Shown: positions 3,829-4,503 of the stretch, piece by piece | How positions within the stretch are numbered: position 1 is the stretch's first letter | Layout of the letters: every line of letters begins with the position of its first letter | Virus record (IMG/VR): IMGVR_UViG_3300039368_000073 | Strand: one strand, 5' to 3' | From: a virus | Taxonomy: Duplodnaviria > Heunggongvirae > Uroviricota > Caudoviricetes | DNA: 4,787 nucleotides | Notes under the pieces: generated by a model | Seen by the model: the letters and a program-made list of their open reading frames with translations, nothing else | The model's database searches: none | Told to the model about the DNA's origin: nothing | Made by a program: the position numbers and the translations under genes

Positions 3829-4503
3829 ATGAAAAACACTATCAGCGAACGTATTCGGAATCGTCGAAAAGACGTTGGATTAACCCAACAGCAGGTTGCG
3901 AAAGCAATCGGCATATCTCGTGTATCCGTAACAAAATGGGAAAATGGCTCTTCAAAACCTGACGGTGAGAATTTGTATCTACTGTCAAAATTGCTTTCCA
4001 AATCTCCTGAATGGATTCTTTATGGAAAGGACTGTCACGATAAAACCGATGATCTGCGTCTGAATCAGTACCCTTACATTAGTGACAACATCGCCCGGTT
4101 GCCCGTTTTAACGTGGGAACAGGCTGGTTATTGGGATATGAGTTGTCCAGTAACCAAGATTCCTGGTATTAATAACTGGGTTGATGTCATGACAAAAACC
4201 GCTGAAAACTCTTTTTTATTGCATGTTGAGGGAGATGCGATGACAAACTCTAACGGCCTCCCAACCATCCCCGACGGATCTACCGTGCTGATCACACCAT
4301 GCTCAAGTAACATTAGAGAACTGGTGGGAAAAATAATCTTAATCCAATTGGAAGGAACGCCAAACGTAACACTAAAAAAAGTTGCGATTGACGGACCAAA
4401 CATCTATTTGTTGTCACTGAATCCGCTTTACAAACCCATCGAACTGAATGGTGGTTACACCATTAAAGGTAAAGTTTCACAAATACATCAATACTTAGAC
4501 TGA
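3829..4503 (+). CDS. cI: CI/C2-type prophage repressor: N-terminal XRE HTH plus C-terminal LexA-like (S24 peptidase) domain, 224 aa
   Basis: The translation from ATG 3829 (MKNTISERIRNRRKDVGLTQQQVAKAIGISRVSVTKWENG...) parallels the P22 C2 N-terminus as I recall it (MNTQLMGERIRARRKK...). The C-terminal domain aligns with lambda CI and P22 C2: Ala-Gly at the cleavage position (QAGYW), then EGDAMT where those proteins have GNSM/GDSM, then TLKKV. The ORF-track start at 3730 is a TTG that would overlap the cro start; the ATG at 3787 is an alternative. There is no obvious SD, so the transcript may be leaderless or weakly initiated as for lambda PRM. Confidence 0.88.
   Translation: MKNTISERIRNRRKDVGLTQQQVAKAIGISRVSVTKWENGSSKPDGENLYLLSKLLSKSPEWILYGKDCHDKTDDLRLNQYPYISDNIARLPVLTWEQAGYWDMSCPVTKIPGINNWVDVMTKTAENSFLLHVEGDAMTNSNGLPTIPDGSTVLITPCSSNIRELVGKIILIQLEGTPNVTLKKVAIDGPNIYLLSLNPLYKPIELNGGYTIKGKVSQIHQYLD

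Follow-up and report, generated by a model that had tools for sequence, protein, structure and literature searches.

A lambda-type prophage repressor of Escherichia coli with alanine at the catalytic serine position of its LexA-like domain

The window analysed here, a 4,787-nucleotide stretch of viral DNA (IMG/VR record IMGVR_UViG_3300039368_000073; Caudoviricetes), covers the part of a lambdoid prophage that serves immunity and replication, as judged from its open reading frames (ORFs) and Pfam matches, and its cI-type immunity repressor (CI) carries alanine at the position of the catalytic serine of lambda CI and LexA. The reading that we favour, with a probability of roughly 0.7, is that this protein works as an immunity repressor of the lambda type with a LexA-like domain that is by nature devoid of catalytic activity, and thus that it is a natural equivalent, maintained by selection, of the "ind-minus" mutants made in the laboratory. 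Release of Shiga toxin, gene transfer and the death of lysogens under quinolones are driven by the induction of prophages upon DNA damage, which for lambdoid phages is textbook behaviour. If the favoured reading is true, one of the commoner lambdoid immunity types of E. coli, found in 12.9% of complete genomes and including ST131, O111 and O26 lineages, would be blind to the SOS response, which would change the expectation of which prophages antibiotics can wake and would provide a natural example of a host-favouring "grounding" of prophages via a single residue.

The repressor and its active site

Bases 4231-4242 of the window read GGA GAT GCG ATG, that is G-D-A-M, in the frame of the ORF at 3730-4503, and the alanine is residue 137 of the repressor (Table 1). 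The phmmer alignment places VEGDAMT of the window opposite VEGNSMT of lambda CI, and in a MAFFT alignment with lambda CI, LexA and 114 relatives Ala137 shares its column with S149 of lambda CI and S119 of LexA (VSGMSMKD). A preliminary description of the window had placed an alanine at the catalytic Ser position and had proposed an alignment to check it; this check has now been run, and the claim is borne out by both alignments. The 61-mer spanning the Ala codon is found exactly in 681 complete E. coli genomes, so that a sequencing error is excluded.

The cleavage site and the general base are both present. Q-A-G at 4120-4128 lies opposite Q-A-G of lambda CI (phmmer and MAFFT) and A-A-G of LexA (MAFFT), and its Ala-Gly is retained in all full-length cluster members examined but one Salmonella member, which has Val-Gly. 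Lys183 is directly followed by a second Lys (4378-4380), and VTLKKV of the window stands opposite FTFKKL of lambda CI, which contains K192 (phmmer); the Lys183 column does not vary in 22 relatives, and Lys is kept in all inspected members of the Ala type. The presence and positions of Ala-Gly (4123-4128) and Lys-Lys (4375-4380), as given in the preliminary description, are correct by sequence and alignment.

The remainder of the protein resembles a complete lambda-type repressor. The helix-turn-helix (HTH) domain matches HTH_3 of Pfam with 62.5 bits (E=3.8e-17) and the N-terminal domain of P22 C2 with E=1.3e-12 (phmmer against solved structures) and a template modelling (TM) score of 0.95 (Foldseek); within the HTH region R-V-S-V-T-K-W-E shows no variation across 22 relatives. 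The C-terminal domain matches PF00717 over profile positions 1-115 of 116 (E=2.1e-16), its score of 60.1 bits lying above the cut-off of 23.3, and the best match of the repressor in the PDB is full-length lambda repressor (3bdn, E=2.2e-14, phmmer). An AlphaFold model of the repressor has a predicted local distance difference test (pLDDT) score of 78.6, and a Foldseek search with it matched full-length lambda repressor, LexA and the N-terminal domain of P22 C2. The C-terminal domain of lambda repressor (1kca/1f39) matched at TM 0.81-0.82, with TM 0.82 and a root-mean-square deviation of 1.8 A for 1kca. The model thus supports the prediction that the repressor folds like lambda CI. By its sequence, the protein belongs structurally to the S24/CI family but, being without the catalytic Ser, is not filed here as self-cleaving.

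The NCBI annotation pipeline PGAP starts the protein at 3787 and gives a form of 238 residues (WP_000103685.1, "LexA family protein"), which is probably 14 codons too long. A true start at 3829 with a length of 224 residues is favoured because many homologues begin at Met15 of the longer form, because an operator abuts this ATG, and because residues 1-15 of the longer form have a pLDDT below 50 in the AlphaFold model. The conserved "NIGY" that precedes Met15 is the operator GTAACATTGGTTAC read as codons.

Replacement of the nucleophilic Ser by Ala abolishes self-cleavage of both LexA and lambda CI without harm to folding, and such S-to-A forms are stable, uncleavable proteins in the PDB entries 1jhh and 6a2s and in the RecA complex 8s7g, which are among the entries matched by fold. 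Since Ala occupies the nucleophile position and this precedent exists for both LexA and lambda CI, self-cleavage of the Ala137 repressor should be lost, as in LexA S119A and lambda S149A. The earlier proposal that the protein folds without being able to cleave itself is therefore well supported by analogy with these mutants and by the predicted lambda CI-like fold.

Distribution and descent of the alanine and serine alleles

The cI region was found in 702 (12.9%) of 5426 complete E. coli genomes. Besides the 681 genomes with the exact 61-mer, two carry it with one mismatch (one checked: GDAM) and three have a sequence nearer to that of O55:H7 (one checked: GDAM), giving about 686 genomes with Ala, a count in which two of the five variant genomes were checked, both being Ala, and three were included without an individual check. 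Ser is found in the other 16 genomes of this immunity type (about 98% are thus Ala): eight carry an O55:H7-type allele with TCG, whose DNA is 95% identical, and eight carry an allele with TCA that belongs to a separate protein cluster (cluster 3) and is 87% identical in protein. The O55:H7 allele bears out the statement of the preliminary description that GCG is a single step from the Ser codon TCG. A version of the 61-mer with TCG and the same flanks was found in none of the E. coli genomes by megablast, which needs an exact word of 28 bases and misses the O55:H7 allele.

When proteins are grouped at 90% identity, all listed full-length members of a given cluster share the same residue, which is Ala in three clusters and Ser in two. 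Ala is found in an E. coli/E. albertii cluster of 499 members, in a second E. coli cluster of 12 and in a Salmonella cluster of 20, where the codon is GCA; Ser is found in the third E. coli cluster (cluster 3, 39 members) and in an Enterobacter cluster of 5. Relatives of at most 52% identity in the first search all have Ser except one degenerate Arsenophonus protein. Over the 116 relatives aligned with the repressor, 105 of them representatives at 50% identity, the nucleophile column holds Ser in 97, Ala in 8, Thr in 7 and another residue in 4, at least two of which look like alignment artefacts.

Departures from the canonical motifs are also seen further afield. About one in seven of the nearest HTH-S24 families (50%-identity representatives P0032-P0168) are without Ser, with several independent G-D-A-M and G-D-T-M lineages, most of which are also without Ala-Gly. 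Relatives from Arsenophonus and Symbiopectobacterium (P0010-P0014, P0016, P0020) keep Ser and have no Ala-Gly at the cleavage position (EQISKW, EQVSKW), and one Arsenophonus protein has lost the entire GDSM motif (PDDKTDN).

The Ala allele is found at two attachment sites, potB/potC and ompW, where the prophages carrying it have complete structural modules. Inserted between potB and potC, the lambda-like prophage with the exact allele of the window possesses a full set of head, tail, lysis, Q, xis and int genes; the copy in CFSAN061770 has insertions of the insertion sequences (ISs) IS3 and IS4 and several frameshifted genes, and that in another strain has one IS1. A 99%-identical Ala allele is found in an apparently uninterrupted HK97-like prophage adjoining ompW in the ST131 strain JJ1887. 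The Ser allele of cluster 3 was located in prophages encoding Shiga toxin 2a (Stx2a) in JNE120393 (at yccA) and in the O178:H19 strain 2012C-4431 (at rspB/ynfA), and also in a sibling prophage without stx in strain ST130, so that Stx2a prophages account for two of the three loci examined. The Cro proteins of Ala-type and Stx2a Ser-type prophages share 87.5% identity, and the stretch read as the HTH of Cro is unchanged. Because the HTH of Cro, the R-V-S-V-T-K-W-E stretch of CI and the operators are the same, we infer that the Ala-type and the cluster-3/Stx2a phages share one immunity specificity, and cross-immunity against Stx2a phages with the same operators would be predicted if the favoured reading holds. 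The same kind of prophage also occurs with a repressor of different immunity (motif LESDSMS; L003:2233-2871 and the same position in L004), which is called a 112-residue "LexA family protein" by the annotation pipeline. Its full ORF of 212 residues is open, is found in 1042 of the 5426 E. coli genomes, and is 100% identical to cI of phages vB_EcoS-813R8 and vB_EcoS-640R1.

Purifying selection acts between the Ala alleles, including on the C-terminal domain. Between the window and P0002, another Ala allele, synonymous divergence (dS) is 0.62 over the whole gene, and the C-terminal domain has a nonsynonymous divergence (dN) of 0.045 and a dS of 0.775, which gives a dN/dS ratio (omega) of 0.06. 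The second E. coli Ala cluster lies at a dS of about 0.6-0.8, and omega is about 0.06-0.10 between diverged Ala alleles, none of which has stop codons or frameshifts. Synonymous sites of the Salmonella Ala allele are saturated. The history of the codon was followed on a neighbour-joining tree of 12 alleles from which the nucleophile codon had been left out. Cluster 1, including the O55:H7 Ser allele, and cluster 3 are each monophyletic with 100% bootstrap support, and cluster 1 groups with P0002 at 77%. Taking Ser as ancestral, the tree needs at least three Ser/Ala changes, their number and direction resting on this distance tree. The O55:H7 Ser allele falls with strain C8 in 52% of bootstraps and basal to the Ala alleles in 28%, which favours neither retention nor regain of its Ser. 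For a gene conversion origin of this Ser, positions 396 and 409 match the state of cluster 3 and position 411 does not. The sub-lineage of the window split from the O55:H7 allele at a dS of about 0.1, and Ala in this sub-lineage is younger than that split. As a whole, Ala is neither a private nor a recent lesion, because it is present in about 686 genomes, in varied prophage backbones, and in diverged alleles including that of Salmonella.

It is possible, though we would put it well below even odds, that the nucleophile codon acts as a reversible toggle of one nucleotide (TCR to GCR and back) between SOS-inducible and SOS-blind forms within one immunity group. Ala-Gly and Lys would then be kept usable, either state could be regained, and the O55:H7 Ser would be one such return. 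If this were true, resident Ala-type prophages would give their hosts an SOS-proof, dominant immunity to phages with the same operators, including Stx2a phages with a Ser allele, and would block lysogenic conversion and toxin induction in their strain.

Routes to induction and rival explanations

In the mechanism that we propose, a repressor dimer would bind the GTAAC-N4-GTTAC operators and would silence both the cro-ydaT-replication operon and the ydfA-dicB-exo-xis-int operon. Without a Ser hydroxyl to attack the Ala-Gly bond, activated RecA would be unable to trigger self-cleavage of the repressor, and repression as well as superinfection immunity would outlast the SOS response. In E. coli, Ala would be the usual state of this immunity group and would be maintained by selection rather than being a private lesion, the likely advantage for the host being that DNA damage, as in the gut or under quinolones, would not lead to lysis and immunity would be retained. 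Close Ser alleles with the same operators would be retained by phages that rely on the SOS response for their induction, Stx2a prophages among them. A plausible selective reason is provided by studies of related situations: in the gut of mice, 1-2% of lambda lysogens die through induction in each generation, a cost that is abolished by cI ind-minus, with which the prophage is about 1000-fold less inducible (PMC4752277), and an inducible prophage makes its host more sensitive to ciprofloxacin (PMC13320796).

Several observations weigh against a dead protease that is maintained by selection. Such a protein does not need the retained Ala-Gly and Lys, and cleavage could still matter, for example in trans; however, at these divergences both may have been retained by chance, with a probability of roughly 0.2 for the Salmonella allele by our own estimate. 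The distant GDAM lineages in the MAFFT alignment have lost Ala-Gly. The copy in the window and one other are flanked or interrupted by ISs, and some carriers of the Ala repressor are decaying prophages. Literature searches found no paper describing this allele or protein. Furthermore, isolated phages are weakly informative. No match of the module above 43% identity was found among 50,697 phage records, from which the Ser alleles of the group are absent too. A Ser-bearing control repressor present in 1042 genomes has only 3 phage records, so that about two records would be expected for the Ala type. Zero against about two is not significant, and absence from isolated phages, considered as evidence of non-inducibility, was rejected as such and kept as a weak hint.

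An uncleavable repressor could still belong to a prophage that responds to SOS otherwise, either through an antirepressor of the same or another prophage, as for Gifsy, 186 and N15, or by cleavage in trans by another S24 protein; we consider this unlikely, albeit worth serious attention. Intermolecular cleavage of LexA and CI was reportedly described by Kim and Little in 1993, and nearly every Ala allele seen retains both Ala-Gly and Lys. Antirepressors that act in trans are well established (PMC3121763). However, the annotation of four prophage loci (L001, L006, L016, L023) lists no gene for an antirepressor or for a protein of the Rha, BRO or KilA type. A scan with the LexA consensus, in which the sulA box of the host scores 18/20 and real SOS boxes score 15-18, found 13/20 as the best site in the potC-type prophage with the exact allele. 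A site scoring 16/20 in the JJ1887 prophage (L016:11391) speaks for this route, but it sits at the start of a DNA methyltransferase gene rather than of a small regulator and is shared with a Ser-type Stx2a prophage. The antirepressor that the preliminary description had offered as an alternative was thus not confirmed, since none is annotated and the potC-type prophage with the exact allele has no good LexA box; small unannotated or trans-acting antirepressors, or trans cleavage at the retained Ala-Gly, are possible routes of induction. The LexA-box-like site itself, AACTGGATATTTTTACAGTA, is found at L016:11391-11410 in the ST131 Ala-type prophage and at L017:11495-11514 in the Stx2a Ser-type prophage, equals the recA box with its 16/20, and lies at the 5' end of the methyltransferase gene of the prophage, just downstream of the Q antiterminator. 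Within the window, CTG-N10-CAG at 3747-3762 (CTGTTATTTCGAGCAG), between the start of cro and the first operator, was considered as a LexA-like site and rejected, because it is not conserved in L013 and L017 and about one such match is expected by chance.

That Ala is a decay mutation in a dying prophage, neutral or recent and without selective maintenance, is improbable. Indeed, the codon is one base from Ser, the copy in the window is bounded by IS1 and IS3, and the CFSAN061770 prophage bears the insertions and frameshifts described above, but the same Ala recurs in about 686 genomes with different backbones and attachment sites, its alleles are separated by dS values of 0.6-0.8 and by saturated synonymous sites at low omega and with open frames, and no damage is seen in the operators, in cro, or in ydaT and its site. 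This explanation is largely refuted by the distribution among genomes and by dN/dS, and the same genomes, backbones and diverged Ala alleles contradict the suggestion of the preliminary description that the codon reflects a recent inactivating change in a domesticated prophage. Still more improbable, to a degree that makes it hardly credible, is self-cleavage by another nucleophile, such as the neighbouring Thr139 or a water activated by Lys. Lys and the cleavage site are intact, and in seven of the representatives at 50% identity the nucleophile column holds Thr, so that chemistry without Ser may exist. Against this, the S-to-A exchange abolishes cleavage in LexA and lambda CI and yields the stable forms seen in 1jhh, 6a2s and 8s7g, and lambda CI also has Thr after Met (VEGNSMT), yet this Thr does not rescue S149A.

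The immunity switch and its known counterparts

The repressor gene is part of a complete CI/Cro/CII-type switch and not of a wreck (Table 1). The window contains three perfect GTAAC-N4-GTTAC sites, whereas shuffled sequences lead to an expectation of 0.135 sites even when up to one mismatch is allowed. The layout is kept in every related allele examined (five allele clusters), Ser or Ala alike, and a site equivalent to GTAACTCTTGTTAC is also found downstream of cI in the related loci L013, L010 and L015. From their placement, the three palindromes are likely the right (OR) and left (OL) operators of CI. Near GTAACTCTTGTTAC, TTGACT at 4559-4564 can be read as a promoter hexamer by eye; a simple promoter scan found no consensus promoter in 3500-4787. 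The predicted YdaT site of the window has the form TTGATT-N6-AATCAT and the same position as the footprinted OM site described, together with the CII-like function of YdaT, in PMC9986795. The hairpin that follows the cI stop was seen by inspection and is absent from the list of a simple scan. Intact relatives continue with ydfA-ydfB-ydfC-dicB where the window has an IS3-family element.

Table 1. Positions of the repressor gene, its functional residues and the surrounding features in the window
Feature	Position	Strand	Remarks
cI-type immunity repressor gene	3829..4503	+	224 residues and stop; ORF 3730-4503
HTH_3 domain	3853..4017	+	Pfam; residues 23-77 of the 238-residue form
Peptidase_S24-like C-terminal domain (dimerisation and "protease" fold)	4102..4476	+	PF00717; residues 106-230 of the 238-residue form
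Ala99-Gly100 codons (GCT GGT), scissile-bond position	4123..4128	+	aligned with lambda A111-G112 and LexA A84-G85
Ala137 codon (GCG), catalytic Ser position	4237..4239	+	aligned with lambda CI Ser149 and LexA Ser119
Lys183 codon (AAA), general-base position	4375..4377	+	aligned with lambda K192 and LexA K156
Putative operator GTAACAATAGTTAC	3767..3780	.	cI-cro intergenic region, cro-promoter side; perfect GTAAC-N4-GTTAC
Putative operator GTAACATTGGTTAC	3815..3828	.	abuts the ATG at 3829; perfect GTAAC-N4-GTTAC
Putative operator GTAACTCTTGTTAC	4578..4591	.	downstream of cI; perfect GTAAC-N4-GTTAC; likely OL, leftward early promoter
cro-like gene	3522..3737	-	71 residues; divergent from cI; Pfam P22_Cro, E=2.9e-16
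ydaT, CII-equivalent establishment regulator	3100..3525	-	identical over residues 2-141 to YdaT of CP-933P, PDB 8bt1
Predicted YdaT binding site TTGATTTTCATGAATCAT	3515..3532	.	cro/ydaT junction; consensus TTGATT-N6-AATCAA, one mismatch
Likely intrinsic terminator	4510..4533	+	hairpin ACCCGCA-TTCAT-TGCGGGT then T run, just past the cI stop
O-like HTH_36 gene	2115-3092	-	
DnaC/IstB-like ATPase gene	1362-2108	-	
DUF1627 gene	624-1340	-	
DUF4406 gene	17-313	-	Pfam match ends at residue 73 of the 98-residue ORF
IS1 end	1..~100	.	hundreds of IS1 matches; truncates the DUF4406 gene of the prophage
IS3-family element end	4711..4787	.	matches to IS3 family transposase regions; about 120 bp past the OL operator

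Among repressors that do not cleave themselves, those of the Gifsy type would share with the window repressor that induction, if any, takes another route. They have no S24 domain and rely on antirepressor genes behind LexA boxes (PMC3121763), whereas neither such a gene nor such a box was found in the potC-type prophage. PaaR2 of the cryptic prophage CP-933P of E. coli O157:H7 is likewise CI-like and is paired with the same Cro/YdaS-YdaT arm, the YdaT of the window being identical; mitomycin C elicits no response from PaaR2, which is without a peptidase motif, and its switch is bistable without SOS (PMC8630535). PaaR2 stands at the head of a toxin-antitoxin operon, and the window protein differs from it in having retained the entire S24 fold along with the cleavage site and Lys. 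The idea that the window repressor is that of CP-933P was rejected: despite the identical YdaT, PaaR2 without its peptidase motif is a different protein. The "pr" repressor of Nissle 1917 (PMC5987069) was rejected as well as a candidate for the window gene, since the pr amplicon measures only 410 bp and none of the four primers matches the window or the fetched loci. The CI proteins of Stx phages share the HTH and Peptidase_S24 domains with the window repressor, and clades I-VII, which bear S24, all keep the catalytic Ser (PMC8951638). The window repressor is without it, while its nearest Ser alleles, 87% identical and with the same operators, are those of the Stx2a prophages.

Loss of Ser is not unique to the window repressor, as 19 of the 116 aligned relatives are without it. 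MEROPS keeps a category of "non-peptidase homologues" for members of family S24 that have the fold without the catalytic Ser. The distant GDAM lineages differ from the window group in that they have also lost Ala-Gly, whereas in the window group Ala-Gly is retained and Ser alleles of the same immunity exist alongside. The closest counterparts are the laboratory mutants lambda cI ind-minus/S149A and LexA S119A, which have the same fold, position and substitution, and in which repressor function is intact while cleavage is lost, as is predicted here. The ind-minus phenotype is predictable from these textbook mutants, and what is noteworthy is how common the substitution is, that Ser and Ala alleles coexist within a single immunity group, and that there is a link to Stx2a phages. 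By contrast to the laboratory mutants, the substitution described here is natural, is carried by about 98% of the E. coli genomes of this immunity type, stands under purifying selection and recurs in diverged alleles, and from its cleavable sisters the window repressor is set apart by one residue.

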